A stretch of 64,000 nt of DNA from a virus: the IMG/VR virus record IMGVR_UViG_3300021961_000019. One strand, 5' to 3'. A program made the position numbers and the translations under genes. Below the pieces are notes generated by a model. It was not told where the DNA came from, ran no database searches, and saw nothing but the letters and a program-made list of their open reading frames with translations. Positions 4,787 through 53,584 of the stretch are shown in pieces (the stretch's first letter is position 1; each line of letters starts with the position of its first letter).

Positions 4787-4789
4787 TTT

Positions 4790-9440: not shown

Positions 9441-9620
9441 TCAGTTGGAACATGCAGGGGGAACATATGAAGAATCGATCTGTACAACACCATCGATGAC
9501 AAACTCTTGAAGAATGTAATTGATAGAAATGCCATACTGAATGCTCATTGCCTCTAACTCCCTTCGAATGTCTTCAGTACCTTGAAAGGGGCGAAAGTGA
9601 GTGGGTTGATAGTCTTTCAT
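9441..9620 (-). CDS. Small hypothetical protein (MKDYQPTHF...)
   Basis: ORF track frame; start moved. Confidence 0.5.
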   Translation of the reverse strand: MKDYQPTHFRPFQGTEDIRRELEAMSIQYGISINYILQEFVIDGVVQIDSSYVPPACSN

Positions 9621-9634
9621 GATTCGAAGTGAGA

Positions 9635-9763
9635 TTAACGAACAGGGCGAACAGGAGCAGGTTGAAGAACAGGTTTTGCCTTGATGATTGCGTTCTTGCA
9701 TTGTGCTTCAATCTCAGAAAGAGTGAAGCGAGTGGGAGTGTTCAGACGTTGACGCTTGTTCAT
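9635..9763 (-). CDS. Small hypothetical protein (42 aa, MNKRQRLNTP...)
   Basis: Manual ORF directly downstream of a class-1 promoter element. Confidence 0.55.
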   Translation of the reverse strand: MNKRQRLNTPTRFTLSEIEAQCKNAIIKAKPVLQPAPVRPVR

Positions 9764-9803
9764 GATTTGAATGGGAATGGTGTGGGAGAGTTGTTCCCCT
9801 CCC

Positions 9804-9857
9804 GTATCTTCATCATAGGGTGCTGAAGACCGTTGGAGGGTTTTTCAGCGTATCTGC
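9804..9857 (-). promoter_or_regulatory. Class-1 promoter element, copy 1
   Basis: GCTGAAAAA box, then TATGAT GAAGATAC; CAGC end 32 nt from first base of -10. Confidence 0.75.
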
Positions 9858-9858
9858 T

Positions 9859-10110
9859 TCAGACTTCTTCATCCAGCAGATTGGGGACTTCTTTAATCTC
9901 AACCCCGAAATCTTCCAACACTTCATCACCATAAACATCACGAATCTCATTGATAAGTTCCGACTCGGAGTAGTTGTTAAGATTCTCCACAAGAGTATCA
10001 AACACAAACTGTTCCATCGATTTCGTGTCCATGCTGTCCATAATCTGTTCAGCATACTTCTCAACCAGTTCGGAGAAGTTGTCAGTCCAGGTGTAAGCGT
10101 TGTTGTTCAT
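9859..10110 (-). CDS. Acidic hypothetical protein
   Basis: 83 aa ORF in cassette. Confidence 0.65.
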   Translation of the reverse strand: MNNNAYTWTDNFSELVEKYAEQIMDSMDTKSMEQFVFDTLVENLNNYSESELINEIRDVYGDEVLEDFGVEIKEVPNLLDEEV

Positions 10111-10114
10111 GGTT

Positions 10115-10330
10115 TCAGTTCAGAATGATACGATAGTCGATTTCCAGGATGCACCAACCGGTTGCACAACTAATCTCTTCGATTAGATCCTCTTCATCAT
10201 CTGCCTCCCAGATTTGACCAACATACTCTTGATTGAGTTTTTCTTCAGTACAGATCTGGTCACTCAAAGACCAATCATCTTCACAATCAAGAGAGCAATC
10301 AAACTCAATTTTGGTGATTTGGAATTGCAT
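10115..10330 (-). CDS. Acidic hypothetical protein
   Basis: 71 aa ORF in cassette. Confidence 0.65.
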   Translation of the reverse strand: MQFQITKIEFDCSLDCEDDWSLSDQICTEEKLNQEYVGQIWEADDEEDLIEEISCATGWCILEIDYRIILN

Positions 10331-10333
10331 GAT

Positions 10334-10513
10334 TCAAACCAGTTCGGATTGCATTTCGACCTCTAAGGTCTTGAACTTGAAGTAATCATAACCGTCAACT
10401 TCTACCACCTCTTGCATGTACTTTTCAGCAGCAGAGAGACAGTCAAACAAACGAAGGGAAGAGAAATCTTCACCTTCATAATCGAATCCACCGATCACAG
10501 AGTAGACTTTCAT
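10334..10513 (-). CDS. Hypothetical protein
   Basis: TGATG coupling with upstream ORF. Confidence 0.65.
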   Translation of the reverse strand: MKVYSVIGGFDYEGEDFSSLRLFDCLSAAEKYMQEVVEVDGYDYFKFKTLEVEMQSELV

Positions 10514-10683
10514 CACAGATCAATCACGACGGAGTAGTATGCAACAGAGGAAGGAACTCCGCTTAAAGCAAGCGAACCGTTCCGGGAATCGCAATAGTCT
10601 TGCGCTTCATCATAGGACTCAAAAGGTCCAACGTACTCTGGGGATTCCAGAGACAGAGAATCAAATCGAACGGTGTGGGTCAT
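10513..10683 (-). CDS. Small hypothetical protein (56 aa, MTHTVRFDSL...)
   Basis: Manual ORF; RBS AAAGGAAA inside class-1 element. Confidence 0.6.
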   Translation of the reverse strand: MTHTVRFDSLSLESPEYVGPFESYDEAQDYCDSRNGSLALSGVPSSVAYYSVVIDL

Positions 10684-10697
10684 GGGTGGTTTCCTTT

Positions 10698-10752
10698 GGT
10701 ATCTTCATCATAGGGTGCTGGAACCCATTGAAGGGTTTTTCAGCACATGTGC
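10698..10752 (-). promoter_or_regulatory. Class-1 promoter element, copy 2
   Basis: GCACATGTGC palindrome, TGAAAAA, TATGATGAAGATACC; 32-nt spacing. Confidence 0.8.
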
Positions 10753-10753
10753 A

Positions 10754-10903
10754 TCAGAGTTCATCCCTCATTTCAGAAAGTTTATCGTAGATCAGAGATA
10801 CATCTGCACCCACGATTTCACTTACCTCAGACCAATCATCATGAAACTCAATGAGGGCAAGCAGAGCATCAAGTTCATCAAACGTGAGAGTTACTTTTTC
10901 CAT
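10754..10903 (-). CDS. Small acidic protein (49 aa, MEKVTLTFDELD...)
   Basis: Manual ORF. Confidence 0.6.
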   Translation of the reverse strand: MEKVTLTFDELDALLALIEFHDDWSEVSEIVGADVSLIYDKLSEMRDEL

Positions 10904-10905
10904 GA

Positions 10906-11076
10906 TCAGAAACCGTTGAGAAAGTTAGCAAGTGCTTCATCATACTCCTCTTTGGAGTTAAACACCTTTCCACCAACTGTGCGGGGATAGGTAGACTCTT
11001 TAGCAGGAGTTTGCGTCTCAGCGACACTGTAACCCTTCTCCAGAAGGGTCTGAACGTAGGGGTTGGAATGGGTCAT
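10906..11076 (-). CDS. Small hypothetical protein (56 aa, MTHSNPYVQTLLEKG...)
   Basis: Manual ORF downstream of class-1 element. Confidence 0.6.
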   Translation of the reverse strand: MTHSNPYVQTLLEKGYSVAETQTPAKESTYPRTVGGKVFNSKEEYDEALANFLNGF

Positions 11077-11088
11077 GGGTCTTTCTTT

Positions 11089-11143
11089 GGTATCTTCATC
11101 ATAACCCCTCCAGGGCGGTTGGAGGGGTTTTCAGCACTTGTGC
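11089..11143 (-). promoter_or_regulatory. Class-1 promoter element, copy 3
   Basis: Same architecture; perfect 10-bp inverted repeat 11103-11129 in spacer. Confidence 0.8.
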
Positions 11144-11144
11144 C

Positions 11145-11459
11145 TCAGTTGAGACGCATTCCGCTGAAGAAGGGAATTGCGGATCCGTCATACTGAACGA
11201 ACCACTCACCTTTCTTTTGGAACACATACTCACCAGGCATTCCGTGTGCCTGAAGAATAGCGTTCAGACGGGATTTGGTGGTGTTGGTCCTCCAACCACC
11301 ATCAAACAATTCGACGAACGTTTCACCAATCCGAGCGATCAGATTGTCGTACAGATACACATCAGAAACATGAGAATATGCGATCACTTCAGTGTTATCT
11401 TTCTTCCAATCCTTGTGCTGCAGGATTGCATCGTTCATTTGGGATTCGATCTTACGCAT
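11145..11459 (-). CDS. Hypothetical protein (MRKIESQMN...)
   Basis: ORF track frame; start moved. Confidence 0.7.
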   Translation of the reverse strand: MRKIESQMNDAILQHKDWKKDNTEVIAYSHVSDVYLYDNLIARIGETFVELFDGGWRTNTTKSRLNAILQAHGMPGEYVFQKKGEWFVQYDGSAIPFFSGMRLN

Positions 11460-11508
11460 GGTGCGCATGGTGGGAAAAGCGATGGGATGATGGGAGGTCT
11501 TCCCCCCT

Positions 11509-11563
11509 GGTAACTTCATCATACCCCCTCAGGGGTCGTTGGCGGGTTTTTCAGCAGAAGTGA
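11509..11563 (-). promoter_or_regulatory. Class-1 promoter element, copy 4
   Basis: GCTGAAAAA, then TATGATGAAGTTACC; 32-nt spacing. Confidence 0.8.
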
Positions 11564-11581
11564 TGCAGATCTTCACAATAT

Positions 11582-11609
11582 AAAAAATCCGGGGTTACCA
11601 GCCCCGGAT
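11582..11609 (-). terminator. Rho-independent terminator
   Basis: ATCCGGGG-7 nt-CCCCGGAT stem plus U-tract on minus strand. Confidence 0.8.
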
Positions 11610-11726
11610 CATTAACCCAACACCTATCCACTATTGATATCATTATCTCCGTTCAACTTCGATTCGGTTCCCATCCGAATCGGGGTGACTTTTCTTATAG
11701 CAGCGGCAAACCCTTTCCGCTCTTAC

Positions 11727-11987
11727 TTAGAAGTCGAAGACCTCAGAATTCAGTTCAATTGTATTCACCTTCTTGCTGTTATACTTAACGCCGTCCGGAG
11801 TTTCTTTTACTCCACACTCATAGAGTGCTTCCACGACATCTTCATAGTTGCCGAGTTCACCCGCAAGAGCATAGAGACCTTCATCATTCTGCAACCAGAG
11901 TGCAACATTCCAGGTTTCATAGTTGGTCCAACCATTATAACCTTTGTCGAAAACATTGGTCTTGTGAATGTCAAAGATGGTGTTCAT
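11727..11987 (-). CDS. Hypothetical protein (GYNGWTNYETWNVALW motif)
   Basis: Motif common in small phage proteins; start moved to 11987. Confidence 0.7.
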   Translation of the reverse strand: MNTIFDIHKTNVFDKGYNGWTNYETWNVALWLQNDEGLYALAGELGNYEDVVEALYECGVKETPDGVKYNSKKVNTIELNSEVFDF

Positions 11988-12088
11988 GATCTTAGAAACA
12001 ATTGGGTTGGGGTTGGGGGGTGCCCTTAGTTCCCCCCGTTGTGGCAGTTGTGCCACTTCCTAGAGCAGAGTGGAGGTCTTTCCCTCCC

Positions 12089-12142
12089 GTATCTTCATCA
12101 TACCCCCCGGAAGGGGTTCGGAAGGTTTTTCAGCAGATGTGC
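12089..12142 (-). promoter_or_regulatory. Class-1 promoter element, copy 5
   Basis: GCA-N4-TGC, TGAAAAA, TATGATGAAGATAC; 32-nt spacing. Confidence 0.8.
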
Positions 12143-12143
12143 A

Positions 12144-12371
12144 TCAGAAGTGAGATTCGGACCAATCAAGCATTTCGCTATACTTAGCGATGCCATCATA
12201 GCAACGCTTGCTCATCTCATGATCACCGTCTGCAACATAACCTTTCAGGAATTCGAAGCAATACTTGATACGCAGTTCAGGTGCGATTGCTTCCAGTTGT
12301 TGACGCTTACGCTCTTGATAGGAGTTGTAAGCAAACATTTCACGATCTTCGAATGACATTTGGTGAAACAT
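12144..12371 (-). CDS. Hypothetical protein (MFHQMSFEDRE...)
   Basis: Start moved to ATG after class-1 RBS. Confidence 0.65.
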   Translation of the reverse strand: MFHQMSFEDREMFAYNSYQERKRQQLEAIAPELRIKYCFEFLKGYVADGDHEMSKRCYDGIAKYSEMLDWSESHF

Positions 12372-12390
12372 GGTGTGGGTCCTTTCCTTT

Positions 12391-12445
12391 GGTATCTTCA
12401 TCATACCCCCCAGAGAGGGTCTGGAGGGTTTTTCAGCAGAAGTGA
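12391..12445 (-). promoter_or_regulatory. Class-1 promoter element, copy 6
   Basis: Same architecture; 9/10-bp inverted repeat in spacer. Confidence 0.8.
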
Positions 12446-12449
12446 TGCA

Positions 12450-12848
12450 TTACCACTTCTCCATCCACCCATGGCGGGTGCATTCTAAAGTAACGCCAGC
12501 ACGGTTGATGTTACGATCAAAATCAACATTTGCGGCACGAAGTGCATCATGATCAATCTTGGTTGCATCACAGTAGAATTTGATCGCACCATATGCAGTT
12601 TGAATCCTAGCAGCACCGTTGAGTTCATTATACTCAAGAACGGTATACTTGGTGAAATCAGTGCCGCCGCGGCCAACGGCTTTACCATCTACAACTGCAT
12701 CATCTTTGATGTCGATATAATGCTCCTGAAATCCGTATGCATCATAATAGCGACCATTCGGAAGTGCAACACCGGGAGCACATGCAGTGGTGAGAATAGC
12801 AAGACCAGCAACCAGAATGCCGGTGAGTTTGGTGAGAGTGGCAGTCAT
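12450..12848 (-). CDS. Putative lipoprotein
   Basis: Basic N-terminus, hydrophobic stretch, lipobox-like LTTAC. Confidence 0.55.
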   Translation of the reverse strand: MTATLTKLTGILVAGLAILTTACAPGVALPNGRYYDAYGFQEHYIDIKDDAVVDGKAVGRGGTDFTKYTVLEYNELNGAARIQTAYGAIKFYCDATKIDHDALRAANVDFDRNINRAGVTLECTRHGWMEKW

Positions 12849-12868
12849 GGTGTGGGTCCTCCCCTTTC

Positions 12869-12921
12869 TGTTATCAGTATAGGGTCCCGCAGGACCCCGA
12901 CTGAGTTTTCAGCACATGTGC
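12869..12921 (-). promoter_or_regulatory. Class-1 promoter element, copy 7
   Basis: GCACATGTGC, TGAAAA, TATACT; 32-nt spacing; 6-bp stem in spacer. Confidence 0.75.
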
Positions 12922-13193
12922 AGCACAGGTGCTGGTTGAACAGAAAAGGTGCCCAATCGGTCACAAGAGATAGAAACAGCGTGAGAAGGTGCTCCACACT
13001 CATCTACAACTTCCCACCAATCTTCACCTTCTTGAATCACAACATAACCGAAACATCCAGCGATGGAAAGAGACTTAAGGCCCCACTTTTCTGCATGAGT
13101 CTGATAATTCCACCAAGTCCTTTCGTTATAGAATTTGGAGGAATCATCAGAGCGAGGACCAAACGTGATGCAGGTGAATTTGAATTTGTCCAT
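12909..13193 (-). CDS. Hypothetical protein
   Basis: 94 aa ORF. Confidence 0.6.
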   Translation of the reverse strand: MDKFKFTCITFGPRSDDSSKFYNERTWWNYQTHAEKWGLKSLSIAGCFGYVVIQEGEDWWEVVDECGAPSHAVSISCDRLGTFSVQPAPVLHMC

Positions 13194-13195
13194 GA

Positions 13196-13351
13196 TCAGG
13201 AGATTGCACGAAGGTGTTTACGGGTGTCGAAACCTTTAGCATGTTCTTCCTTGCGCAACTTAGCAGCAAGTTCTGCAAAGGTATAGGGTTGATTTGCAGC
13301 AATCATGATTAATTGCTGAGATTGCAAATCACACGCCAATTGGTAAGACAT
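13196..13351 (-). CDS. Small hypothetical protein
   Basis: ORF track frame; start uncertain (13351 or 13306). Confidence 0.4.
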   Translation of the reverse strand: MSYQLACDLQSQQLIMIAANQPYTFAELAAKLRKEEHAKGFDTRKHLRAIS

Positions 13352-13358
13352 GGTGAAT

Positions 13359-13478
13359 TCAGTTGGCAAGAGCGTGACAATGAGCAAGGGCACCATAAGT
13401 CCTGAGAGCATACTGATATGCTTCAACTTTGGTGTAGAAGCACGCCACGGGACTTCCTTTGTAGTAGAGAGTGAACAT
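13359..13478 (-). CDS. Small hypothetical protein (39 aa, MFTLYYKGSPV...)
   Basis: Manual ORF after class-1 RBS. Confidence 0.55.
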   Translation of the reverse strand: MFTLYYKGSPVACFYTKVEAYQYALRTYGALAHCHALAN

Positions 13479-13495
13479 GGTGGGTCTCCTCCTTT

Positions 13496-13550
13496 GGTAT
13501 CTTCATCATACCCCCTCAGGACCCCCCGGAGGGTTTTTCAGCATCGATGC
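13496..13550 (-). promoter_or_regulatory. Class-1 promoter element, copy 8
   Basis: GCATCGATGC palindrome, TGAAAAA, TATGATGAAGATACC; 32-nt spacing. Confidence 0.8.
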
Positions 13551-13551
13551 G

Positions 13552-13836
13552 TCACATACGTTCACGCATCATCCGGTGAGCATGAGATTCTACAACTTTT
13601 AGTCCATCTTCTGTAGATGATACAAACCACGCTGCACATGTGCTTCCGTTGAGTGCAACTTCATCAGCAATCTTCCACGAATTCCCATAATATTGAATCA
13701 GCACGTAGTAATCATCAACTGCGCCAGCAATGAGTTGATTGAATGCATGGTAAACAGTATACTCATCTTCATGACGAACATGATGATTAAAAATATTTCC
13801 ATCTTCTAGAAGACGTGCGGTGATGATTTCAAACAT
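13552..13836 (-). CDS. Hypothetical protein
   Basis: 94 aa ORF between two class-1 elements. Confidence 0.65.
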   Translation of the reverse strand: MFEIITARLLEDGNIFNHHVRHEDEYTVYHAFNQLIAGAVDDYYVLIQYYGNSWKIADEVALNGSTCAAWFVSSTEDGLKVVESHAHRMMRERM

Positions 13837-13857
13837 GGTGGGTCTTTGATCTCAACA

Positions 13858-13909
13858 ATGTCAGCATATGCCCCTCAGGGCCCCCTGCAGGGTATTTCAG
13901 CAGATATTT
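13858..13909 (-). promoter_or_regulatory. Class-1 promoter element, copy 9 (divergent)
   Basis: GCTGAAAT, then TATGCT; 33-nt spacing. Confidence 0.55.
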
Positions 13910-14240
13910 AGCGGGAGAGCATCACCCGTGCAGCACGACCGCTGTTATAAGTCCACAGAACGGCAGATGCGAATCGATTCTTTACATCTTCACCGTTCAC
14001 TTCCCACCATAGTTGTACAGCAGCGATCACATCTTTCACGAATGAGTATACTTTATGCAGGAATGCTTTAATCTCAGTCTCATGCTCTTTTACATATTCG
14101 ATCACCACAGTTACAATCACTGCCACGAAGGCAACTAGTGTAACAAATTGATTCCAGAGATTCTTATAATCCACTGCCCGAAGATAATCATAAAGATCAT
14201 TCACAGGGGGAAAAGATTTGGCGAAAGGTTGAGTGTTCAT
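13908..14240 (-). CDS. Hypothetical membrane protein
   Basis: Hydrophobic segment FVTLVAFVAVIVTVVI. Confidence 0.65.
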   Translation of the reverse strand: MNTQPFAKSFPPVNDLYDYLRAVDYKNLWNQFVTLVAFVAVIVTVVIEYVKEHETEIKAFLHKVYSFVKDVIAAVQLWWEVNGEDVKNRFASAVLWTYNSGRAARVMLSR

Positions 14241-14374
14241 GATTTCAAAAGAATTAATTGTGTGGTGGCAATCCGTCTGCCTCCACGTTCACACCATAGC
14301 ACTCCCAGGACCACGTGACGTGCTGCAGATACGAATCTTAACCGCAGCATCATGCATCATGTTACACGTGTATA

Positions 14375-14536
14375 CTACCAGAGATCATCTGTGTTGAGTT
14401 CTTTTACATCTACCTCTAGATGTTCACCACCTTCAAGATTTAAAATAGTATCCCAATCTAAATCTTGAGGATCAAAATCATCCATAACTTCTAGATCTAG
14501 AGTAATTCTGTACCTATGCATCTGTGCGTATACCAT
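14375..14536 (-). CDS. Small acidic protein (53 aa, MVYAQMHRYRITLDLEVMDDFDP...)
   Basis: Manual ORF; RYRITLDLEV..DFDP..DW pattern recalled from cyanomyophages; own promoter. Confidence 0.7.
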   Translation of the reverse strand: MVYAQMHRYRITLDLEVMDDFDPQDLDWDTILNLEGGEHLEVDVKELNTDDLW

Positions 14537-14560
14537 AAGAACCATCTGAACTCTATGTGT

Positions 14561-14589
14561 ATTATACCGCGCTTAGATTAATAAGGCAA
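14561..14589 (-). promoter_or_regulatory. Sigma70-like promoter
   Basis: TTGCCT-17-TATAAT pointing away from the repeat array. Confidence 0.65.
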
Positions 14590-14619
14590 GCGTTGAATGT
14601 ATATATGCAGCATGTGTAA

Positions 14620-15110
14620 ATCTAGTGTACTTATGTGAAGTATGTACATGAATCTAGATGTGTATATGCAGCATACATGAATCTAGATGTATATGTGTAT
14701 GATGTGAATCTAGTTGCATATGTGCAGCAGATCTAGTGCAATCTAGTTGTGTATATGATGTGCTGTAATCTAGTTGCAGAAATCTAGTTGCATATGTGCA
14801 GCAGATCTAGTTGTGTTTCAGCGGACCCGTGGCATTTCTGCAGCGTCCCTGGGGCAAATTTTCCGCGTCCCGTGGTTGACAAACTGCGCGTCCGGTGCTA
14901 AGCTGTCCAAGATCACAAGACCTGGGGGCATTTAAATGATCATAAGTGTATTAAAGATCTAGTTACATGATGTATAGATGATTTAATACATGATGATGAT
15001 TAATCTAGTTGTGTATATGATGATTAATCTAGTACATGAATCTAGTTGTGTATATGATGATGAATCTAGTTACATCTAGTTGTATAATACATGATGATTA
15101 ATCTAGTTGT
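14620..15110 (+). repeat. Non-coding array of 16 same-orientation ATCTAG(TTG) repeats; putative origin/iteron region
   Basis: 9 copies in 14620-14810 and 7 in 14955-15110, split by a GC-rich island; no ORF. Confidence 0.8.
14876..14904 (+). promoter_or_regulatory. Sigma70-like promoter inside the array
   Basis: TTGACA-17-TAAGCT. Confidence 0.7.
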
Positions 15111-15310
15111 GTATACATTGTTTAAAGAGATAATAAGATCAATATAAGTATCGTACCCATCCATATACCCATTAAAGCAACAGTTAATTGAAACATAATA
15201 CTATCCATATCTAATGGTTTATACTCCTATTATAGCACACTTAAACCTTTTATTTATTCCTCTAAAACATATATATTTTTACGTTTAACACAAACATCAT
15301 ATTATTCATT

Positions 15311-16117
15311 ATGACAAATACGGGCACAATATACCTCATTCTCAATCGTGTCAATGGACATAAGTATGTGGGTCAAACTAGGCAACAATTGAACACCAGA
15401 TGGAAGGCACATCTGACTGAAGCACGTTCTTATCCTACTCGTCCTCTCTACTATGCAATTAACAAATATGGTGCAGATAAGTTTACCATTAAGGTATTAG
15501 AAGAATGTTCGGTAGATAAGTTAAATGAAAGAGAAGTGTATTGGATTTCTAAACTCAATACCTTTAAAAGTGGTGTCGATTATAATGCAACTGCAGGTGG
15601 TGATTTCTTTGAACATACAGAGGCTACTAAACAAAAGATCTCTGAAGGAATGAGAAAGGTAGAGCGTTCGGATGAATGGATACAGAACATGTCTACCTCA
15701 TTAAAGGAAAAGGCAAAGAAAGAACCTTGGGGGTTTTTGAATGCAAAGAATAGAGCAGATGGTAAACATACACGTCGTAGAGTTAAAGGTGTATGTGTCA
15801 CCACTGGAAAAGAGAGAATCTTTGAAAGTATGACTGAAGCAGCAAGACAGGTGAATGGAAAGAGTGGTAATATCTGTGCTGCGATCAAGAACAATTGGAT
15901 GGCATATGGTTACAGATGGGAAAAGATTGATACACGTCCCAGTAAGTTACAATGCTATGGTGTGAATAAGCATACTGGTGAACAAACAGTCGTCTTTCCC
16001 AGTATTAAAGCTGCATGTCGTTATATGGGTGGAGATCATGATTCTGGTATTCGCAAAGCATTAAAAGCACCAGGAGTGTCCACATGGTATGGATACTACT
16101 GGTTCTTTGTGGCATAG
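15311..16117 (+). CDS. GIY-YIG homing endonuclease (Seg-like) with NUMOD-type C-terminal modules
   Basis: GTIYLILN...KYVGQT...RWKAH; ELNEREVYWI-like segment and YN motif; repeated FESMTEAAR / FPSIKAAC modules. Confidence 0.88.
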   Translation: MTNTGTIYLILNRVNGHKYVGQTRQQLNTRWKAHLTEARSYPTRPLYYAINKYGADKFTIKVLEECSVDKLNEREVYWISKLNTFKSGVDYNATAGGDFFEHTEATKQKISEGMRKVERSDEWIQNMSTSLKEKAKKEPWGFLNAKNRADGKHTRRRVKGVCVTTGKERIFESMTEAARQVNGKSGNICAAIKNNWMAYGYRWEKIDTRPSKLQCYGVNKHTGEQTVVFPSIKAACRYMGGDHDSGIRKALKAPGVSTWYGYYWFFVA

Positions 16118-16560
16118 AGTAGCACAATACAAACACCAACTGCAATACCAATCAAAGTGAATGGTGCAATGTCATTCACTCCCAAAGGTAATCTTTGATA
16201 GGTCTCAGAATCATCAGATCCATTTCTACACTTAGATGAAGATGCATAATCCCAGATTACTCTTGGTCCTTCGGTGTAGAACATTTTTGGATAATCATAA
16301 TATCCAATCTCTGCCTTGCAGATCTTACCTGAAGAGATTACATATCCACCTGAACAGGAGACTTCAAATCCTTCTTCTGTTTCAATCAGATGAAGATCAG
16401 ATTGCTCAAAATGCTTGGCTTTGATGCCTCTTGACCTTGCATTAAAGTGAGATTGCATTTCCTTACACTCTGCCTTAAATGGAAGATTCGCAGCAGAAAC
16501 AGAACCACCTGTCGTAAGTGCAAGGAATGCAATTAAAGATGCAATAGTAGATTTAAGCAT
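16096..16560 (-). CDS. Secreted/membrane hypothetical protein
   Basis: Signal-like N-terminus MLKSTIASLIAFLAL; C-terminal TM segment. Confidence 0.6.
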   Translation of the reverse strand: MLKSTIASLIAFLALTTGGSVSAANLPFKAECKEMQSHFNARSRGIKAKHFEQSDLHLIETEEGFEVSCSGGYVISSGKICKAEIGYYDYPKMFYTEGPRVIWDYASSSKCRNGSDDSETYQRLPLGVNDIAPFTLIGIAVGVCIVLLYATKNQ

Positions 16561-17179
16561 GATACTCTTTTTCACAATACTGACATGTAAGAACATGTTG
16601 CATTTCATCATTTCTCACTTCACGAATCACATCCGCAAGTGTTTCCAGTTTGGGACGACGTTGAAGTTCGCATTGTGGTTGAAACTTGTCAAATAGATAC
16701 TGATTCTCCTCATTCACATAATAGGTGATTGCGGCAGCAGGAACTGGTCCTTTCAGCAGATCTGAGTCAGATTGAAGAAACTTATCATAGGTCCCATAGG
16801 CATGTTTCTCAATCTCTGCCATCATGTAGTATGCTGCTGGGGCATCTACCACATACAAAATCACAACTGCCCAGTAATACAGTAGAGCAGCATGATAGGC
16901 TATAAATCGATTGATCCATTGCTTGTTGCCACCCAGTTCTTCAAAGATGCGAAGATGATGTTCTTCATTATAGGATTCTGCATAATGCACACTCAGCCAA
17001 TCATAGCGATCCCACATACCCAGAGATTGATACAGGTGCAGAACACTCATCCATGAGAAATAAGGTACTCGCGCAACTGTTTCCAATACCCAAAATCGTT
17101 CGATTGGTGCATTCTTGTAAACAATATCCAGTAGAAATACAACTACTGACACCATAAGATTTGCAATTAAACGTGTCAT
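16553..17179 (-). CDS. ptox: Plastoquinol terminal oxidase (PTOX/AOX di-iron family)
   Basis: RFWVLETVARVPYF; E-x-x-H ligands (NEEHH, DEMQH); EKHAYGTY. Confidence 0.92.
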   Translation of the reverse strand: MTRLIANLMVSVVVFLLDIVYKNAPIERFWVLETVARVPYFSWMSVLHLYQSLGMWDRYDWLSVHYAESYNEEHHLRIFEELGGNKQWINRFIAYHAALLYYWAVVILYVVDAPAAYYMMAEIEKHAYGTYDKFLQSDSDLLKGPVPAAAITYYVNEENQYLFDKFQPQCELQRRPKLETLADVIREVRNDEMQHVLTCQYCEKEYHA

Positions 17180-17577
17180 ATCCACACTCCAATTTCTTTT
17201 CTGGTTGCAATTTGATAATCTTGAAGTTTTCCTCTTACAAAATGAAGCCTACAGAGTGGAGCATCATCATAAGATTCATTACCTCTGTAATTATACACCG
17301 TTACATAATCTGTCAACTCAACTGGTTTGACCTTTCCATGCTTTCCAGTTGATTTAACTTTGTATTTGAACAAGGCAGACTTCAGAGTTCCATCATCAAC
17401 CCAATTTGGATCTTCTTGAAGTTCACTCGTTCCTGTGTAATCTGTAATCCACAATTGACCAGAAGGATCCATCCAATAGTAATCCATGAAGGAATTTAGA
17501 TCTTTGGTCTGACACTCCACATTTGTAAAACGTGGGCCCAGATCATAAGATGACCTGAAAGTGTCGTACATACCCAT
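17176..17577 (-). CDS. Hypothetical protein (MGMYDT...CQTKDL)
   Basis: 133 aa; ATGA coupled to PTOX. Confidence 0.7.
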   Translation of the reverse strand: MGMYDTFRSSYDLGPRFTNVECQTKDLNSFMDYYWMDPSGQLWITDYTGTSELQEDPNWVDDGTLKSALFKYKVKSTGKHGKVKPVELTDYVTVYNYRGNESYDDAPLCRLHFVRGKLQDYQIATRKEIGVWI

Positions 17578-17580
17578 AAT

Positions 17581-17910
17581 TTAGATCTCCGTTGACTTAT
17601 AATGATTTAGCATGTGTTGAGTATATGTCTTCCAATAAGATAGAAGATCTTCATCGGATGCAGCATTCACAAATTCTTCACTGAATTCATCTCCAAGTGC
17701 GAACAACAGATCATCATTCAGATCCATTTCAATATGTCCGCGATTTAACTCAAACCAAAAGTCATCTGCAATTTCAACTTCTGTTTGTGCAGTTGAATAG
17801 AACATATATCGCATCCAGTGCCAGAATGGCGTCTTGTACAGAAAGATGGTGCGATAGAACAGACTATCCTTAAACTGCTGTAGAAAGGACTTGAACATTT
17901 TCAAATTCAT
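17581..17910 (-). CDS. Hypothetical protein
   Basis: ORF track frame; start moved. Confidence 0.55.
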   Translation of the reverse strand: MNLKMFKSFLQQFKDSLFYRTIFLYKTPFWHWMRYMFYSTAQTEVEIADDFWFELNRGHIEMDLNDDLLFALGDEFSEEFVNAASDEDLLSYWKTYTQHMLNHYKSTEI

Positions 17911-18033
17911 AATGAGGTACAACGATACGGACTTCTTCAGATGGATGTGATGCTTCGCGCATCAGAATTGAGATAGAACTTTGTGTTGCATATACAATCG
18001 GTCCCGTAATCTCTTTATATCTAACAAACGTTC

Positions 18034-18321
18034 CTATTGAAAACATAATTCTAAGGGAGATAGTTTAAGTGGCATAGAAGTATAATTCCTTGTGTCAGAG
18101 ATATTGACCTTCTTTCCTACTTTCGTTGCATTGATTGGGGCATAATATTCATCCTTTTTGAGAGAATAAAATCCCCAAATACATGAAACTGTCTCACCAT
18201 TGTTATAATCGAATTTGCGATGATGGCGAATCCAGATTGAAAGTACACCACGCTTAAACTCCTGAACTTCATATGAATATCCTTTTGGAGGTTTGTGATG
18301 AAATGATTTGGGAAGTTTCAT
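18034..18321 (-). CDS. Conserved cyanophage hypothetical protein
   Basis: HKPPKGYSYEV...IWGFY motif. Confidence 0.7.
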   Translation of the reverse strand: MKLPKSFHHKPPKGYSYEVQEFKRGVLSIWIRHHRKFDYNNGETVSCIWGFYSLKKDEYYAPINATKVGKKVNISDTRNYTSMPLKLSPLELCFQ

Positions 18322-18327
18322 GTTTAT

Positions 18328-18501
18328 TTACACGTCGTATTCTTTATCGGCAGACAGAAGTTCATTGTAATATCGGAGACTTCGAACCTCACTTTCCAGA
18401 CGGTGAACCTCATTGACAAGATCATCAACAACTGATCGAAGCCATTCTGGATTGTCACTATCAAAAGAATGTGCCAGCAAATCTACAAGTTTTTCATTCA
18501 T
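18328..18501 (-). CDS. Small hypothetical protein (57 aa, MNEKLVDLL...)
   Basis: Manual ORF; ATGA coupling. Confidence 0.55.
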   Translation of the reverse strand: MNEKLVDLLAHSFDSDNPEWLRSVVDDLVNEVHRLESEVRSLRYYNELLSADKEYDV

Positions 18502-18734
18502 GTCGTAAACTCTCCAAGAACACGGGAAACTTCTTCTTCAACTAGAGCAAACCTTGATGCTCTCACAACTGCTGCCATGATCAAATTGTCATAAGCATTG
18601 TCATAATAGAATTCTGATCGTTCGGCAAGAAGATCGTGACATTCAACATCACTCTCTGCGATGACGTTAATCATCCCACCATACTCGGAAGATGGAAACG
18701 GCACCCAATAATCAACCTCGTAAAGAAATTTCAT
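18498..18734 (-). CDS. Conserved cyanophage hypothetical protein
   Basis: VDYWVPFPSSEYGG motif. Confidence 0.7.
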   Translation of the reverse strand: MKFLYEVDYWVPFPSSEYGGMINVIAESDVECHDLLAERSEFYYDNAYDNLIMAAVVRASRFALVEEEVSRVLGEFTT

Positions 18735-18738
18735 TTGC

Positions 18739-18909
18739 TTAAATGTAACCCTCCTGAATAAGAATAGCAGCAGTTCTCTGGTAGGAACCCTGCAATGAAT
18801 TTATCATACCACTTGAGACCAACTCTGTAAAGAGTTCAAGGGTCTCATCAAAGTCAAGCTCACCATTCTCATAATCCATGATCAGATCAACAAGACTTGC
18901 AGTAATCAT
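18739..18909 (-). CDS. Small hypothetical protein (56 aa, MITASLVDLIMDYENGEL...)
   Basis: Manual ORF with GAGGAG RBS. Confidence 0.65.
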   Translation of the reverse strand: MITASLVDLIMDYENGELDFDETLELFTELVSSGMINSLQGSYQRTAAILIQEGYI

Positions 18910-18935
18910 TGGTGCTCCTCAACTCTCATATTGTT

Positions 18936-18991
18936 AGTATATGCGCCATATGCCCCCTGAAGCGACCCGATGTGACAGTTGCGTGAGTGGC
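18936..18991 (-). promoter_or_regulatory. Class-2 promoter element
   Basis: 18-bp pseudo-palindrome centred near -53.5, plus TATACT. Confidence 0.65.
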
Positions 18992-19087
18992 ACGTGTGAG
19001 TGGGGAAAGGGGTCCTGTGGGCGCTGCTGGGTGCTGCAGAGCGTCAGATCCCTGTCGTGGACTGGACGGAAACCACGATTTTCTTGC

Positions 19088-19123
19088 AAAAAAAGGGAGG
19101 AAGGACACTAGGACCCTCCTCCC
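19088..19123 (-). terminator. Rho-independent terminator
   Basis: GGGAGGAGGG/CCTTCCTCCC stem plus U7. Confidence 0.75.
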
Positions 19124-19147
19124 CATGAAATTGACGATTTTGGCAGA

Positions 19148-19510
19148 TTAACAGCCACCCAGACCAAGTGCAAATCCTTTGGTACGAATGCCCAGATGTG
19201 AGCATCCATATCCACGATATCCACGATAAGGAGTTCCGTAGTATGGACCAGGAACAGGTGCATAATATGGTGCAGGAGCAACAACCGGAGGTGGAGCAAC
19301 ATAACCACAGTTATGATAGACAGGTTCTCTAACTATTCCACCGCGAAACCAATTCCCGTATTGGTCATAATATCCGGGTCTGCTATATGTTCTCCAAGTT
19401 GTACATGTTTGCACATAAGTGCGAGTTCTACCATCATACCTAACCTCCTGCGCATTAGCAGAGAAAGGCATCGACAACAATAACAAAGGAAGTAGCAAAA
19501 GTGCTTTCAT
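19148..19510 (-). CDS. Secreted Pro/Tyr/Gly-rich protein
   Basis: Signal peptide MKALLLLPLLLLSMPFSANA. Confidence 0.6.
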   Translation of the reverse strand: MKALLLLPLLLLSMPFSANAQEVRYDGRTRTYVQTCTTWRTYSRPGYYDQYGNWFRGGIVREPVYHNCGYVAPPPVVAPAPYYAPVPGPYYGTPYRGYRGYGCSHLGIRTKGFALGLGGC

Positions 19511-19537
19511 AATCGATATGCAAAGGTACAATACTAT

Positions 19538-19942
19538 TTAATTGAATGTGAGAGCGAAGAACCTCTGCTCTTCAAGAGCACCAGGAACTTCAAAATATTT
19601 CCACCCATCATTGGTAAAGATGTATGCATATTCACATCCCTGATCATTTGCACACTCAAGATATTCATTCACATTATCATGAAGCTCAGGCTCAATATTT
19701 GTCTCGCCCCGGTCGCGGTAATAAAGTACAATATTTTCGTCCAGCGCCATATTATCCCAAGAAGAGTTGCTGTCGATGCAACTAATGTCGCCCCCATCAA
19801 TCAACGACTTGATCTTATCTACAGTGTCATACTTCTCAACAAGTCGCTTGCCCAACCATTCCGGATACGCATCCCAATGGTGGTACACAGATACTACATG
19901 TCCAGAGGGCAGTTCCAGACCAATCCGGCCGCGAGTTGCCAT
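19538..19942 (-). CDS. Conserved phage hypothetical protein
   Basis: MATRGRIG...YHHWDAYPEWLG motif. Confidence 0.75.
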   Translation of the reverse strand: MATRGRIGLELPSGHVVSVYHHWDAYPEWLGKRLVEKYDTVDKIKSLIDGGDISCIDSNSSWDNMALDENIVLYYRDRGETNIEPELHDNVNEYLECANDQGCEYAYIFTNDGWKYFEVPGALEEQRFFALTFN

Positions 19943-19958
19943 TTGAGAATCCTCCTTT

Positions 19959-20015
19959 GGTTCAATACCATCATACCCCCCACGGGGTCTCCGGAGGGGT
20001 TTTCAGCATACCTGC
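19959..20015 (-). promoter_or_regulatory. Class-1 promoter element, copy 10
   Basis: GCA-N4-TGC, TGAAAA, TATGAT; 32-nt spacing; AAAGGAGG RBS. Confidence 0.75.
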
Positions 20016-20022
20016 AGCATTT

Positions 20023-21009
20023 CTACACACCCATAGCGTCCAGAAGGGGTGAATGTTCTACCTCTGCCACATCAATCTGCAGGTTTTCTATTGACTTCTC
20101 AAACAACTTCTTGCCTTCTTTGTTAAGATCGAATAAAACGTAATTTCTGCCGGTCAGAAGGGCACTCCTGCCCACCGTCCCAGACCCAGCGCAAGGATCC
20201 AGAACAATAGAATCCTCATCGCTAAACATCCTCAGAATACGATTCAGTAGAGCAACAGGTTTCTGTGTGGCATAATCCAGTTTCTCAACACCCTGTATCT
20301 GCTTAATGTCTGACCACACATCTTTGACTGGAATTCCATCCATCTCATCAAGATACTTCTTGACCCTAGGAATACCAGTATTGGATGAGTATTCAAGGCG
20401 ATTGTCATCATGAAGCATCTGCATTCTCTCCTTTGATACATGCCACTGGAGATCATGTCCATTCCATTTATATCTCAGGTTGGGTCTGGATACAACGTTT
20501 GGTTGACGATTTACCAGGGCAGATGTGTGATACTTCTTCTTGCGATATGGACAAATCTTTGCCTTTCGAACTGTCTCATCATCATACTCTTTATGCTCTG
20601 GATGATAGATGGACTCGGCACCCTTTTGATAGACTATGATCGTATCATGATTGCGCTGCAGTTGTTTCTTTGACTTGTGATTGCCGCCAGAGACCCATAC
20701 AATCTCATTCTTAAATCTCTTCTCACCAAACACATCATCAAGAACAATACGAATATGATGTGAGATCTTTGGTTCAACATGCACAACAATATTACCACGA
20801 TCTGTGAGAATACGATGACACTCCTGTAGAAGTGGGCGCATCAACAAATCGCGGTAATCTGCACTTGATTTGAACCTATCATCAAAATGATAGAAGTCCC
20901 TACCGGTACAATATGGTGGATCAATGTAAACAAGATCTACAGTATTCGCTTCAACTTTCTGCAGCAAATCTCTACTGTCACCGATGTTGTACTCGTTTAA
21001 GATCTTCAT
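20023..21009 (-). CDS. DNA N6-adenine/N4-cytosine methyltransferase (beta class)
   Basis: Motif IV YIDPPY near N-terminus; TQKP; motif I VLDPCAGSGT near C-terminus. Confidence 0.9.
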   Translation of the reverse strand: MKILNEYNIGDSRDLLQKVEANTVDLVYIDPPYCTGRDFYHFDDRFKSSADYRDLLMRPLLQECHRILTDRGNIVVHVEPKISHHIRIVLDDVFGEKRFKNEIVWVSGGNHKSKKQLQRNHDTIIVYQKGAESIYHPEHKEYDDETVRKAKICPYRKKKYHTSALVNRQPNVVSRPNLRYKWNGHDLQWHVSKERMQMLHDDNRLEYSSNTGIPRVKKYLDEMDGIPVKDVWSDIKQIQGVEKLDYATQKPVALLNRILRMFSDEDSIVLDPCAGSGTVGRSALLTGRNYVLFDLNKEGKKLFEKSIENLQIDVAEVEHSPLLDAMGV

Positions 21010-21523
21010 AGATAAGAACCTCTTTCGCACGTCCTGTATACTTCTTACGAACTGCTGCTGGCACAGAACCAACACAGTATCCTGGCATATTCTTGTCTTC
21101 TAACTCATAACTGGGAATAGCAAGATACTCCCAATCAGAGATGTCCTCATAACCATTTGGTATGATGAACAGTATAACATCAAATGAATTGATTGCATAC
21201 CTCACCTGACCATTCTTTGCTCCCTGAGTAGCATTCTTACCCGTGGTCCTTCGGGTCTGTTCCATGTGAAGGGAATTGCCTCCACGATACTTCACTTGAA
21301 TGCGAAGATTGTTGGTAGATAGACGATCATACTTCTCCTGCTGACCATCAGCATCATTAGGAGATGGTTTTGTTTGAATTCCACACTCCTCACGCAACCA
21401 CTGGGGTGCGATAATCCTTTCCGTTGGAAATGCAAGAAACTTACCAATCTCTCTGGTGTCACCTTCGGTGATGAGTTCCTGAAACCCAAGGGCAACAATT
21501 TCTGAAAGTGATGATACTGACAT
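20978..21523 (-). CDS. Putative PD-(D/E)XK-fold endonuclease (restriction-like)
   Basis: KYD-x9-IQVK catalytic-like pattern; overlaps MTase start by 32 nt. Confidence 0.5.
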   Translation of the reverse strand: MSVSSLSEIVALGFQELITEGDTREIGKFLAFPTERIIAPQWLREECGIQTKPSPNDADGQQEKYDRLSTNNLRIQVKYRGGNSLHMEQTRRTTGKNATQGAKNGQVRYAINSFDVILFIIPNGYEDISDWEYLAIPSYELEDKNMPGYCVGSVPAAVRKKYTGRAKEVLIYEDLKRVQHR

Positions 21524-21524
21524 T

Positions 21525-21647
21525 TCAACCACCGTAGATCATTGCAAAGGTGAAAAGCACAAATAAAACAACTGTGAAAACCATCATACCAACACCTGCC
21601 CAGATTACCCAGTTGGGCATTGGTTCATAATTGTGATTGTGTGCCAT
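21525..21647 (-). CDS. Small membrane peptide (40 aa, MAHNHNYEPMPNWVIWAGVG...)
   Basis: Manual ORF; single TM segment; TGA-a-ATG coupling to nuclease. Confidence 0.65.
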   Translation of the reverse strand: MAHNHNYEPMPNWVIWAGVGMMVFTVVLFVLFTFAMIYGG

Positions 21648-21664
21648 GGTGTCTCATATCATAC

Positions 21665-21717
21665 AATAGTATTGTAGGGTCCAGAAGACCCTACGGCAGG
21701 TCAATCAGCAGATCCGG
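21665..21717 (-). promoter_or_regulatory. Class-1 promoter element, copy 11 (divergent)
   Basis: GCTGA, then TACAAT; 33-nt spacing; perfect 8-bp stem 21674-21694. Confidence 0.55.
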
Positions 21718-22470
21718 ATCAAATCCGTTGCTGTCACTCTCACCAGTATAACCTGATGGATTGCAAATTACCCTACATCCTTCAATCATGTAATCAAACC
21801 TAGAATGTGTATGACCATGGACCCAATACTTAATCTGGGGATGTGCCAAGATCAGATTATCCAAGTCACTCACATATGCACCATTTGACTCATTACGATA
21901 CTTAGATGCAATTGATTGCAAACTTGGTCCATGATGACTGATGACAAATACATTCTCTGTGAGAGATTGTAGTTGCTTCAGAAGATACTTCTTACTCTTC
22001 TTATGAAGATCAAGAGTATCATCAGGGTTCAACTTTCTATACTTTGAAGTAATCCTGATGCTACGATAATCATTCATGACTGTAGCAGCATCCATCATTT
22101 CAAGAACATTTTCATTCCTGAAGTCGGTCCAAAGTGTGAACCCAATGAAGTTCCAGACACCAATCTTTACTGTATCATTATCAAGCACTTGAAAGTTGCT
22201 TGGAAGATTGCTTAGGATCTTTTTCTTAGCACCCTCAACGTTGTATCCATAGTATTCATGATTGCCAAAAACGTAGAGAATCTTATCATAGTTCTTACTG
22301 CATTCATACAAGAAATTATCATAAATGGAATGAATATAACCATCCGTCTTGAAGTGCCTTGCACAGAGAATGTCACCAGCAAGAATGAGAACATCACCCT
22401 CACCAACAGGGAACACCTGACAGGCAGAGTAGTGCTCAAGATGTAGATCAGAGTAAACTTTGACTTTCAT
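21691..22470 (-). CDS. Calcineurin-like metallophosphoesterase
   Basis: SDLH, AGD, GNHE, SHH and HGHTH motifs. Confidence 0.9.
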   Translation of the reverse strand: MKVKVYSDLHLEHYSACQVFPVGEGDVLILAGDILCARHFKTDGYIHSIYDNFLYECSKNYDKILYVFGNHEYYGYNVEGAKKKILSNLPSNFQVLDNDTVKIGVWNFIGFTLWTDFRNENVLEMMDAATVMNDYRSIRITSKYRKLNPDDTLDLHKKSKKYLLKQLQSLTENVFVISHHGPSLQSIASKYRNESNGAYVSDLDNLILAHPQIKYWVHGHTHSRFDYMIEGCRVICNPSGYTGESDSNGFDPDLLIDLP

Positions 22471-22545
22471 GATGCTCCAATATCATAATTACGCAGGAGA
22501 CCCTTCCCAGTGGTCCAGGAAGGGCACTTTACTATGTTTCAGGTG

Positions 22546-22995
22546 TCAGCGGGAATACAAATACCCACCCGACCAATCAGCGTTCTGTAGAACCCACTCA
22601 CGATCTTTAATCAGACGGAGATCGTAACGAACACCTTTGGCAGGTGCTTTCCAAGATGCAGACTTGTAGACTTCACCAGTCTTCTTGTCCACAAAACAAT
22701 GCACAGAACGGGACGCCCCAGCATCAACAAAGATGATCTTGTGATACTTGCGACCACTCTCAATCACATAATCAATGGGCAGTTTACCACTCTTGAGTTC
22801 ATCAATAGAACGCTGATGATATCCATGGGCATCTTCTGGAGTGCCAACATAACGCTGATGACCACGAATTGCATACTCGCGATAGTTGTCACGCAGAGCA
22901 TCAGTAAGCATCCAGCACCACTTAACCACATTCAACTGAATGGTGTTGCGGGCATCCTGCTGCGCAGCGTAGTCGGCAAAGGTGGTGGCAGTCAT
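22546..22995 (-). CDS. Conserved cyanophage hypothetical protein
   Basis: VHCFVDKKTGEVYKSASWKAPAKGVRY motif. Confidence 0.75.
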   Translation of the reverse strand: MTATTFADYAAQQDARNTIQLNVVKWCWMLTDALRDNYREYAIRGHQRYVGTPEDAHGYHQRSIDELKSGKLPIDYVIESGRKYHKIIFVDAGASRSVHCFVDKKTGEVYKSASWKAPAKGVRYDLRLIKDREWVLQNADWSGGYLYSR

Positions 22996-23012
22996 GGCAA
23001 GGTCTCCCTCTC

Positions 23013-23067
23013 TTCAATACCATCATATCCCCCCAGAGGTCTCTGGAGGGATTTTAATCACATGTGC
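23013..23067 (-). promoter_or_regulatory. Class-1 promoter element, copy 12
   Basis: GCACATGTGA, TTAAAA, TATGAT; 32-nt spacing; 10/11-bp stem in spacer. Confidence 0.65.
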
Positions 23068-23073
23068 TGCAGA

Positions 23074-24470: not shown

Positions 24471-24492
24471 GAGGTCTCCTTCATCTACTAAT

Positions 24493-24550
24493 AGTATAGG
24501 GGATCCCCAATCGACTGACGGAATCCCCTATGACACTTATTCAACTGTCA
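24493..24550 (-). promoter_or_regulatory. Class-2 promoter element
   Basis: TGACAGTTGAATAAGTGTCA, GC stem, TATACT. Confidence 0.75.
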
Positions 24551-24772
24551 CATATCAACATTTGGTCCCCATGACCCGCGTTCACCACCCTTTCGCTGCT
24601 CAAGTTTATCAAGAAGTTCATCAGTTTTGATCAGAACATCAATATCAGCAACCAGAAGTGCAATCGTCTTTGCAACAAATGCAGGTTCCTGACGTGCAGC
24701 ATATGCTAGTGCATTTCGTAGGGATGATTCTGCTTCGCGCAGAGAGTCTTCTACAGATTTACTAAGTGCCAT
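24548..24772 (-). CDS. Conserved cyanophage hypothetical protein
   Basis: MALSKSVEDSLREAESSLRNALAYAARQE motif. Confidence 0.75.
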   Translation of the reverse strand: MALSKSVEDSLREAESSLRNALAYAARQEPAFVAKTIALLVADIDVLIKTDELLDKLEQRKGGERGSWGPNVDM

Positions 24773-29897: not shown

Positions 29898-30129
29898 TTG
29901 ATTTCTCACAGTGTAAAAAATACTTATATTCGGCAAGAGGGCCGTAGTGCCATTGAATTATATCACATCCTTTGTACTCTCCAACCACCTTAGTGGACTG
30001 TTCTTCAACTGGCGGATTCTGTACCGATCCAATAAAGATCAGTCCTCCGATGAAAACTCCTACAACAAAAACAATAATCCCAACACCCTCCACAAACTCT
30101 CTGAGTGCATGTTTATCATCTTCAGTCAT
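29890..30129 (-). CDS. Membrane protein, paralog of 31916..32170
   Basis: Shares 62-bp identical segment (VVGEYKGCDIIQWHYGPLAEY). Confidence 0.7.
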   Translation of the reverse strand: MTEDDKHALREFVEGVGIIVFVVGVFIGGLIFIGSVQNPPVEEQSTKVVGEYKGCDIIQWHYGPLAEYKYFLHCEKSND

Positions 30130-31915: not shown

Positions 31916-32170
31916 TTATTCGGAATCCTGATATTTTGGGCAATATAGGAAATACTTGTATTCGGCAAGAGGGCCGTAGTGCCATTGAATTATATCACAT
32001 CCTTTGTACTCTCCAACCACTTTGGTGGTCTGTTCTTTAACTGGCACAGTCTTAGTGCCTGATGCCCAAACGATATAGGAAAGCACTAAACAAAGACCAA
32101 TAAAAACAATACTAGCACTCCCAAAACCACGCAGAAACTCTTTCAAAAATTCTTTATCATCTTGTGTCAT
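31916..32170 (-). CDS. Membrane protein, paralog of 29890..30129
   Basis: 62-bp identical segment. Confidence 0.7.
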   Translation of the reverse strand: MTQDDKEFLKEFLRGFGSASIVFIGLCLVLSYIVWASGTKTVPVKEQTTKVVGEYKGCDIIQWHYGPLAEYKYFLYCPKYQDSE

Positions 32171-37164: not shown

Positions 37165-37239
37165 AAGTTTTTTCGGTACATTGTCATCATATCAACGTTT
37201 GAATACGATGACAAGCACGATGTGACACTTTTTAATGTG

Positions 37240-37443
37240 TCACATATCCTGAAACGTGCGATGCTTTTTAATAAAGTTCTTTGCCTGCAGTTGCGTGTTC
37301 ACAACTTCCAACTGCTGTCCATTGTAAATGATTACAAATTGTTTTTTACCATACCGAACAGCAGCATATCCATCCGGTGTTACAAATCCATCCTTAGAAT
37401 TTTTATAGAATTTGTAAATTTGCTTCAGTTCCTTTTCATTCAT
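37240..37443 (-). CDS. Conserved cyanophage hypothetical protein
   Basis: GFVTPDGYAAV..GKKQFVIIYNGQQL motif; ATGA coupled to prs. Confidence 0.7.
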   Translation of the reverse strand: MNEKELKQIYKFYKNSKDGFVTPDGYAAVRYGKKQFVIIYNGQQLEVVNTQLQAKNFIKKHRTFQDM

Positions 37444-53503: not shown

Positions 53504-53526
53504 GGAGATTTCCTGATTACCCTAAT

Positions 53527-53581: not shown

Positions 53582-53584
53582 ATA

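Follow-up and report, generated by a model that had tools for sequence, protein, structure and literature searches.

The stretch of viral DNA held as IMG/VR record IMGVR_UViG_3300021961_000019 (64,000 nucleotides (nt); this whole stretch is called the window below) carries on its minus strand a set of repeated units, here called class 1 cassettes. Each is a portable unit of about 75 bases composed of an upstream box, a hairpin, a -10 box and a leader, and is predicted to be a promoter. Nine copies are arrayed between positions 13912 and 9789 (4.1 kb), and the other two stand alone, at 20019 and 23073. The cassettes are intergenic, and those of the array each head one to four small open reading frames (ORFs) of 40-150 amino acids (aa) with unassigned function; the array is bordered by T4-like genes for baseplate and tail. 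From its gene content the window is assigned to a T4-like cyanomyophage: matches to PHROG families identify the T4-type baseplate wedge protein gp6, the hub/lysozyme and tail proteins, and also a plastoquinol terminal oxidase, a PRPP synthase-like protein and a homing endonuclease. The gene of this last protein, of the GIY-YIG/HNH type, lies just past the array on the opposite strand (15311-16117, plus strand), where it adjoins the plastoquinol terminal oxidase gene.

The pattern GCTGAAAA-N24-34-TATNNT has 10 minus-strand matches in the window for 0.24 expected; a match at 10385, located inside an ORF, was discarded as a chance match. The nhmmer profile, built from 36 distinct cassettes and used with the threshold E<=1e-9, recovers 11 copies from the window; each of them lies on the minus strand, in the orientation of the genes. 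The 5' ends of these matches are 23073, 20019, 13912, 13555, 12926, 12449, 12148, 11569, 11148, 10758 and 9863. The initial annotation had counted 12 copies. Eleven of them stand, and the twelfth, near 21.7 kb, is doubtful: its GCTGA-like box is the coding 3' end of a phosphoesterase ORF (21691-22470), only its hairpin and its TACAAT being intergenic. The mapping of the ORFs bears out the grouping of nine copies, with one to four small ORFs behind each, within 4.1 kb. Exact-pattern scans detected arrays of the same cassette in the IMG/VR contigs L002 (= L003) and L004, and in the metagenome contigs L127 (= L138), L142, L134, L135, L139 and L140. A looser pattern gave about 119 single matches in IMG/VR that were judged to be due to chance, the strict pattern being the informative one. 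The copies of the window are listed below; all except the last are recovered by the profile.

13841-13912, minus strand: variant cassette with a TGAAAT box, a 25-nt spacer and TATGCT (nhmmer E=1.3e-9), heading ORF 13552-13836; an orthologous variant is present in L127
13482-13555, minus strand: cassette with a perfect 10-bp palindrome, a 24-nt hairpin spacer and TATGAT, heading a module of two to three small ORFs
12855-12926, minus strand: cassette with TATACT as -10 box and its own hairpin, heading the 132-aa ORF 12450-12848
12377-12451, minus strand: cassette with a 9-bp hairpin, terminator-like on the plus strand, heading ORF 12144-12371 (phrog_15469)
12074-12148, minus strand: cassette with a long leader that opens with a 5' hairpin, heading ORF 11727-11987 (phrog_871)
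11495-11569, minus strand: cassette with a long leader, heading the 107-aa ORF 11145-11468 (phrog_554); left edge of a module absent from L127
11077-11148, minus strand: cassette heading ORFs 10906-11076 and 10754-10903; right edge of the same L127-absent module
10685-10758, minus strand: cassette of the CAGCACCC type with a weak spacer hairpin, heading four small ORFs
9789-9863, minus strand: last cassette of the array, with no spacer hairpin and a long leader carrying a 5' hairpin, heading ORF 9441-9701 and the subsequent ORFs
19951-20019, minus strand: isolated cassette after a DNA methyltransferase gene, heading the 134-aa ORF 19538-19942 (phrog_1987)
23003-23073, minus strand: isolated variant cassette in which TTAAAAT replaces CTGAAAA, heading the 149-aa ORF 22546-22995 (phrog_818)
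21645-21713, minus strand: doubtful twelfth copy, a hairpin and TACAAT before a 40-aa ORF, below the profile threshold

The 132-aa product of ORF 12450-12848 (minus strand) displays an N-terminal hydrophobic segment followed by a cysteine (signal peptide or lipoprotein-like) and has no PHROG match.

The anatomy of the unit was established on 40 distinct copies, from the window and from six to eight related contigs of uncultured phages. The stop codon of the preceding ORF is found 6-23 nt upstream of the box and, in 21 of 36 cassettes, 12 nt before the G of GCTG. The conserved upstream block spans about -52 to -29: it is composed of GCA-N4-TGC continuing into CTGAAAA(A) or CTGAAAAA, followed by CC-t-CCA or CCCTCCA. 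The ORF upstream of cassette 12855-12926 stops at the TGA within GCTGAAAA; a role of the cassette as supplier of stops in three frames was considered and dropped, since the internal TGA is used by one upstream ORF only. The spacer between GCTGAAAA and the -10 box measures 24 nt in 36 of the 40 copies, 25 nt in three and 23 nt in one, despite the divergence of its sequence. The spacing given in the initial annotation, 32 nt from the G of GCTG to the -10 box in ten copies and 33 nt in two, is exact. All 40 copies have a hexamer TAnnnT (26 TATGAT, then TATACT, TACACT and others), in which T1, A2 and T6 are invariant and positions 3 to 5 variable, and this is the signature of a -10 element. The discriminator downstream is AT-rich. 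In most copies the hexamer is followed by GAAGATACC, then by a Shine-Dalgarno (SD) sequence of the AAGGAGG type and a C/A-rich run, and the ATG lies 22-28 nt past the hexamer; the leader is of 15-21 nt with a strong SD. The promoter scan found no sigma70 -35/-10 pair in any cassette, as had been claimed for this class, and CCCTCC sits at the -35 position. The promoter reading is well supported by the logic of the sequence, namely position, strand, -10 pattern, leader and SD.

The interval between the A-tract and the -10 box had been described as a GC-rich spacer. It is GC-rich, but this description overlooked that it is mostly a hairpin under selection. In most spacers the C-rich 5' half pairs with the G-rich 3' half, forming a stem of 6-9 bp with a loop of 5-9 nt, variable in sequence, fixed in size and lying flush between the A-tract and the -10 box. 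The mean energy of the native spacers is -9.5 kcal/mol, versus -7.3 kcal/mol when halves are swapped and -3.8 kcal/mol for shuffles. The swapped-halves test, which builds chimeras from 5' and 3' halves taken from different cassettes, is register-free, and none of its 2000 permutations reached the native mean. For the 17 spacers that are less than 70% mutually identical, the values are -10.7 versus about -8.2 swapped (p=0.0002). The cassette preceding a family of 130-aa genes has three unrelated spacer sequences at orthologous positions, each with a good stem. The cassette of the 132-aa ORF has a different hairpin in each lineage. As these comparisons of sequence indicate, the spacer hairpin is kept by selection for pairing in about 28 of 36 copies. 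It may act as an insulator, as a terminator or as an element at the level of the DNA.

The three cassettes with long leaders (5' ends 12148, 11569 and 9863) have a second hairpin, GGGAGG...CCUCC, a few nt after the predicted start (12060-12095, 11480-11516 and 9775-9810, minus strand). This hairpin masks an SD-like run, the real start codon being located 60-110 nt downstream, and it is possibly a 5' stabiliser. Its place at the head of the three leaders fits a true 5' end just upstream. Such a position does not suit a reading in which the cassettes are not promoters but intercistronic RNA elements of long early transcripts, each consisting of a protective 3' hairpin, an AU-rich nuclease site and a translation leader. 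That reading would explain why a hairpin about 20 nt past the stop codon is selected for pairing and not for sequence, why an AU-rich segment is conserved after it, and why leader, SD and spacer are conserved. It leaves the block upstream of the hairpin without an obvious RNA role, and the conservation of the hexamer follows the pattern of a -10 box. Moreover, the genes that precede the two solitary copies (20019 and 23073) are larger and unrelated. We consider it quite unlikely that the cassettes are RNA elements of this kind.

Three promoters with a TGTGACA-N10-TGTCACA-like dyad are also present on the minus strand of the window (24490-24552, 37180-37246 and 53520-53585); the initial annotation had missed this type. 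Their dyads (24550, 37245 and 53582) end 28-30 nt before TATACT or TATGAT. At 24550, a GC hairpin additionally abuts the -10 box. The dyad search also brought out an identical 22-nt segment present twice, 2 kb apart (29946-29967 and 31978-31999, plus strand). The class 1 pseudo-dyad ends 30 nt before the -10 box: the register is common with the canonical dyads and the box is different. The class 1 cassette is a second predicted promoter class, beside the canonical dyad type, in one genome. In the phage Syn9 a few units are seen in which a TGTGACA-type dyad is followed, after about 30 nt, by a -10-like box and then by a leader with CACACC-ATG at its end; an analysis of k-mer enrichment in Syn9 gave only late-promoter-like words and coding repeats. 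Doron et al. are said to have reported in 2016 a novel regulatory element for the early genes of Syn9. As far as we can tell from inspection of Syn9, the dyad units probably match this published element.

The presence of two promoter classes in one genome suggests two readers. A dimeric phage or host protein bound to GCA-N4-TGC (centre about -47.5) may recruit the polymerase to the class 1 cassettes, and such an activator-dependent class would give its gene set a timing separate from that of the canonical dyad-type early promoters. The columns of the GCA and TGC arms are conserved at 89-100% although they lie past the stop codon, which argues for this activator, as do the register shared with the canonical dyads and the lack of a -35 hexamer. 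Other features of the block argue against it. About 5 of 45 copies lack the left arm, which in several good copies (GCATCAC- and CTAAATA-type) is either absent or displaced, and no covariation of the arms was found beyond the conservation of the columns. For a dimer, 10 bp would be a short site; conservation is highest in the asymmetric GCTGAAAA-CC part of the block, and no candidate protein was identified. The activator, which is compatible with the reading that we favour below, is a possible explanation that we advance tentatively.

The cassettes were also proposed to be substrates of recombination, and this idea gains direct support from the comparison of gene content between relatives, in which the changes are located at the cassettes. 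The events were read from module maps and from blastn comparisons between the window and the related contigs. Between L002 and L004 there is an indel of 1010 bp, corresponding to three genes' worth of modules absent in L004 and bounded by two cassettes. The single cassette of L004 is a hybrid, matching the left cassette on its 5' side and the right cassette from the spacer onward, with the crossover falling within the conserved GCTGAAAA core. In the same manner, the 420-bp module 11148-11569 of the window has a cassette at either end, and a single hybrid cassette stands at this place in L127. The gene after cassette 12148 is replaced in L127 by an unrelated gene, the break being located at the end of the cassette leader. 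The modules follow one order in the window and L127 and another in L002 and L004, and the cassettes tend to travel with their downstream gene. L127 carries the same cassette sequence, from one end of the unit to the other, at two separate loci (6024-6065 and 4758-4799, minus strand), whereas the window orthologues of these two cassettes are not the same, which indicates gene conversion. These comparisons support the cassettes as patches of homology where modules insert, delete, replace, reorder and homogenise. The genes of the array (9441-13836) have a GC content at third codon positions of 0.44, versus 0.31-0.35 for the other genes of the window, which suggests that the array has a separate history, either coming from higher-GC phages or exchanging with them.

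We find it rather likely that the class 1 cassette serves an uncultured lineage of T4-like cyanomyophages as a compact and portable expression cassette, and also as a recombination patch. The upstream block (about -52 to -29) would substitute for the -35 hexamer, and the host RNA polymerase with its primary sigma factor would start about 7 nt after the -10 box. The A-tract, UP-like, would assist initiation, perhaps together with a factor on the pseudo-dyad. The hairpin would insulate neighbouring units as a terminator, an attenuator or a 3'-end protector, being a canonical terminator for antisense transcripts only. Judged from the comparison of relatives, cassette and gene behave as a mobile promoter-gene module, like the promoter/stem-loop cassettes known as PeSLs in RB49/phi1.

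Several points weigh against this expression cassette. A -10 box with neither a -35 hexamer nor a TGn extension is a weak signal of the sigma70 type and needs an extra factor or a tolerant host enzyme; the start site, the timing and the polymerase are themselves predictions from sequence. About 8 of 36 cassettes have no hairpin, and a column-wise count of covariation in fixed register is not significant, because the stems shift their register by 1-3 nt. The folding energies of the sense and antisense strands are equal, so that energy does not resolve the RNA strand of the hairpin. On the strand of the genes the stem is followed by UAUGAU, with only 3 U in 6 nt, which makes sense termination doubtful. 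A canonical terminator is present elsewhere in the array, apart from the cassette hairpins, and neither a plus-strand promoter nor a T4-type late promoter was found near the array, which leaves antisense termination without evident use.

On the opposite strand, the stem of every hairpin-bearing copy is directly followed by four or five T, the canonical arrangement, and two copies pass a generic scan for terminators. The cassettes could be mainly intrinsic terminators against antisense transcription of the early array, with their sense promoter features secondary. A dedicated plus-strand terminator at 11656-11686 within the array is consistent with this view. It belongs to the following segment:

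11578-11730, minus strand: conserved non-coding segment in the array with one canonical terminator per strand, back to back; 89% identical in L127

The segment is conserved in L127 though the upstream gene differs there, and the z-score of its fold is only -0.9, so that it is not obviously a structured RNA gene. Against a primary role as antisense terminators, the A-tract is retained in the approximately 8 copies devoid of stem, which indicates that it is not merely a terminator tail. The fixed -10 spacing and the conserved leader would be left unexplained, G-U-type pairs are equally frequent on both strands, and the promoters that would feed such terminators are those looked for near the array and not found. 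We judge this explanation very unlikely. The more ambitious proposal of a second early-promoter system, needing both DNA structure (the hairpin being extruded or read) and a dedicated factor for the box, other than the reader of the canonical dyad, and switching on horizontally acquired higher-GC takeover genes with their own timing, appears to us improbable. If true, it would represent a structure-dependent promoter for the multisubunit polymerase of the host, with a portable regulon attached.

Concerning the distribution of the cassette, the gp6 of the window displays at most 58% identity with that of any deposited phage. With megablast, the DNA of the array region has two short matches only, of 76-78%, in S-PRM1 and S-CREM1. 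These values indicate a lineage without cultured close relative. One cassette compared by blastn with 50,697 phage records gave zero matches, and the class 1 motif was not found in eight cultured cyanomyophages (S-PRM1, S-CREM1, Syn9, B3, RN05-S, P-TIM68, Bellamy and S-SM2). No Rfam family matched within 8-24 kb of the window.

The start of infection in T4-like cyanophages, which have no Alt, Mod, MotA or AsiA, is only partly understood. Here, two classes of promoter cassette in one genome, with a common register and different upstream boxes, constitute a natural experiment, and a selected hairpin is located exactly where the -35 hexamer and its spacer are expected. The cassettes are constructs for probing what replaces -35 recognition in marine Synechococcus. 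The junctions, resolved at the level of the nucleotide, show promoter-gene modules as units of exchange and illustrate the spread of accessory genes in phages of oceans and estuaries.

The PeSLs of RB49/phi1, T4/PST and KVP40/nt-1 are cassettes of a promoter and a stem-loop, shown to be active in promotion, termination and recombination (Arbiol et al. 2010, PMC2839356; Comeau et al. 2014, PMC4122927). Such shuffling has been published for phages of enterobacteria and vibrios (PMC2839356, PMC4122927), and Puxty et al. 2015 found no dense PeSLs in the cyanophage S-PM2 (PMC4503421). Like PeSLs, the class 1 cassettes are short intergenic repeats that lie in the hyperplastic regions of T4-like genomes and head small ORFs of unassigned function. 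Common to the two are a stem-loop with runs of C/G and an A/T tract, together with a -10 box and a start codon preceded by an SD, and in both, indels, replacements and reordering end at the units and leave hybrid units. The differences lie in the arrangement. A PeSL has a strong sigma70-like promoter, its -35 and -10 hexamers about 17 bp apart, whereas the class 1 cassette has no -35 hexamer. Its stem-loop occupies the promoter itself, with the A-tract before it and the -10 box after it, and that of the PeSL is upstream of the promoter; the A-tract precedes the stem-loop in class 1 and follows it in the PeSL. The class 1 cassette adds a conserved pseudo-dyad box, and its phage infects a cyanobacterium. 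PeSLs are known for promoter and terminator activity and for mini-circles excised by recombination between neighbouring cassettes, while the class 1 cassettes are described here from sequence.

According to a review of 2010, the early genes of S-PM2 and Syn9 carry sigma70-like motifs (PMC2984593). The early dyad of cyanophages, with half-sites of the TGTGACA type, is 22-24 bp long and ends about 28-31 nt from the -10 box. The class 1 unit resembles it by a symmetric upstream box about 28-30 nt before TAnnnT, the lack of a -35 hexamer, a short leader whose SD is of the AAGG type and whose ATG follows a C/A-rich run (CACACC), and small genes of early type. The class 1 box is nevertheless not such a dyad: it is shorter (a 10-bp pseudo-dyad, the A-tract and CCCTCCA), and the units are arrayed in high copy, with a selected hairpin filling the spacer.

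The MotA box of the T4 middle promoters has its centre at -30 and lies 11-13 bp from the -10 box; there, AsiA and MotA appropriate sigma70. Class 1 likewise has, in place of the -35 hexamer, another conserved box with TGCT in it. The class 1 box is centred near -41 and ends 24 nt from the -10 box, and the analogy with MotA drawn in the initial annotation fails on this geometry. The same review describes the cyanomyoviruses as having neither motA nor asiA (PMC2984593). The cassette resembles an intrinsic terminator in its GC-rich stem (6-9 bp), which abuts four or five A/T, but the T-run follows the stem on the antisense strand only and about one fifth of the copies are stemless. The general layout is already known from PeSLs and, as far as we can tell, from the early element reported for Syn9; class 1 is a variant of the promoter/stem-loop and cyanophage early-promoter cassettes rather than a new principle.

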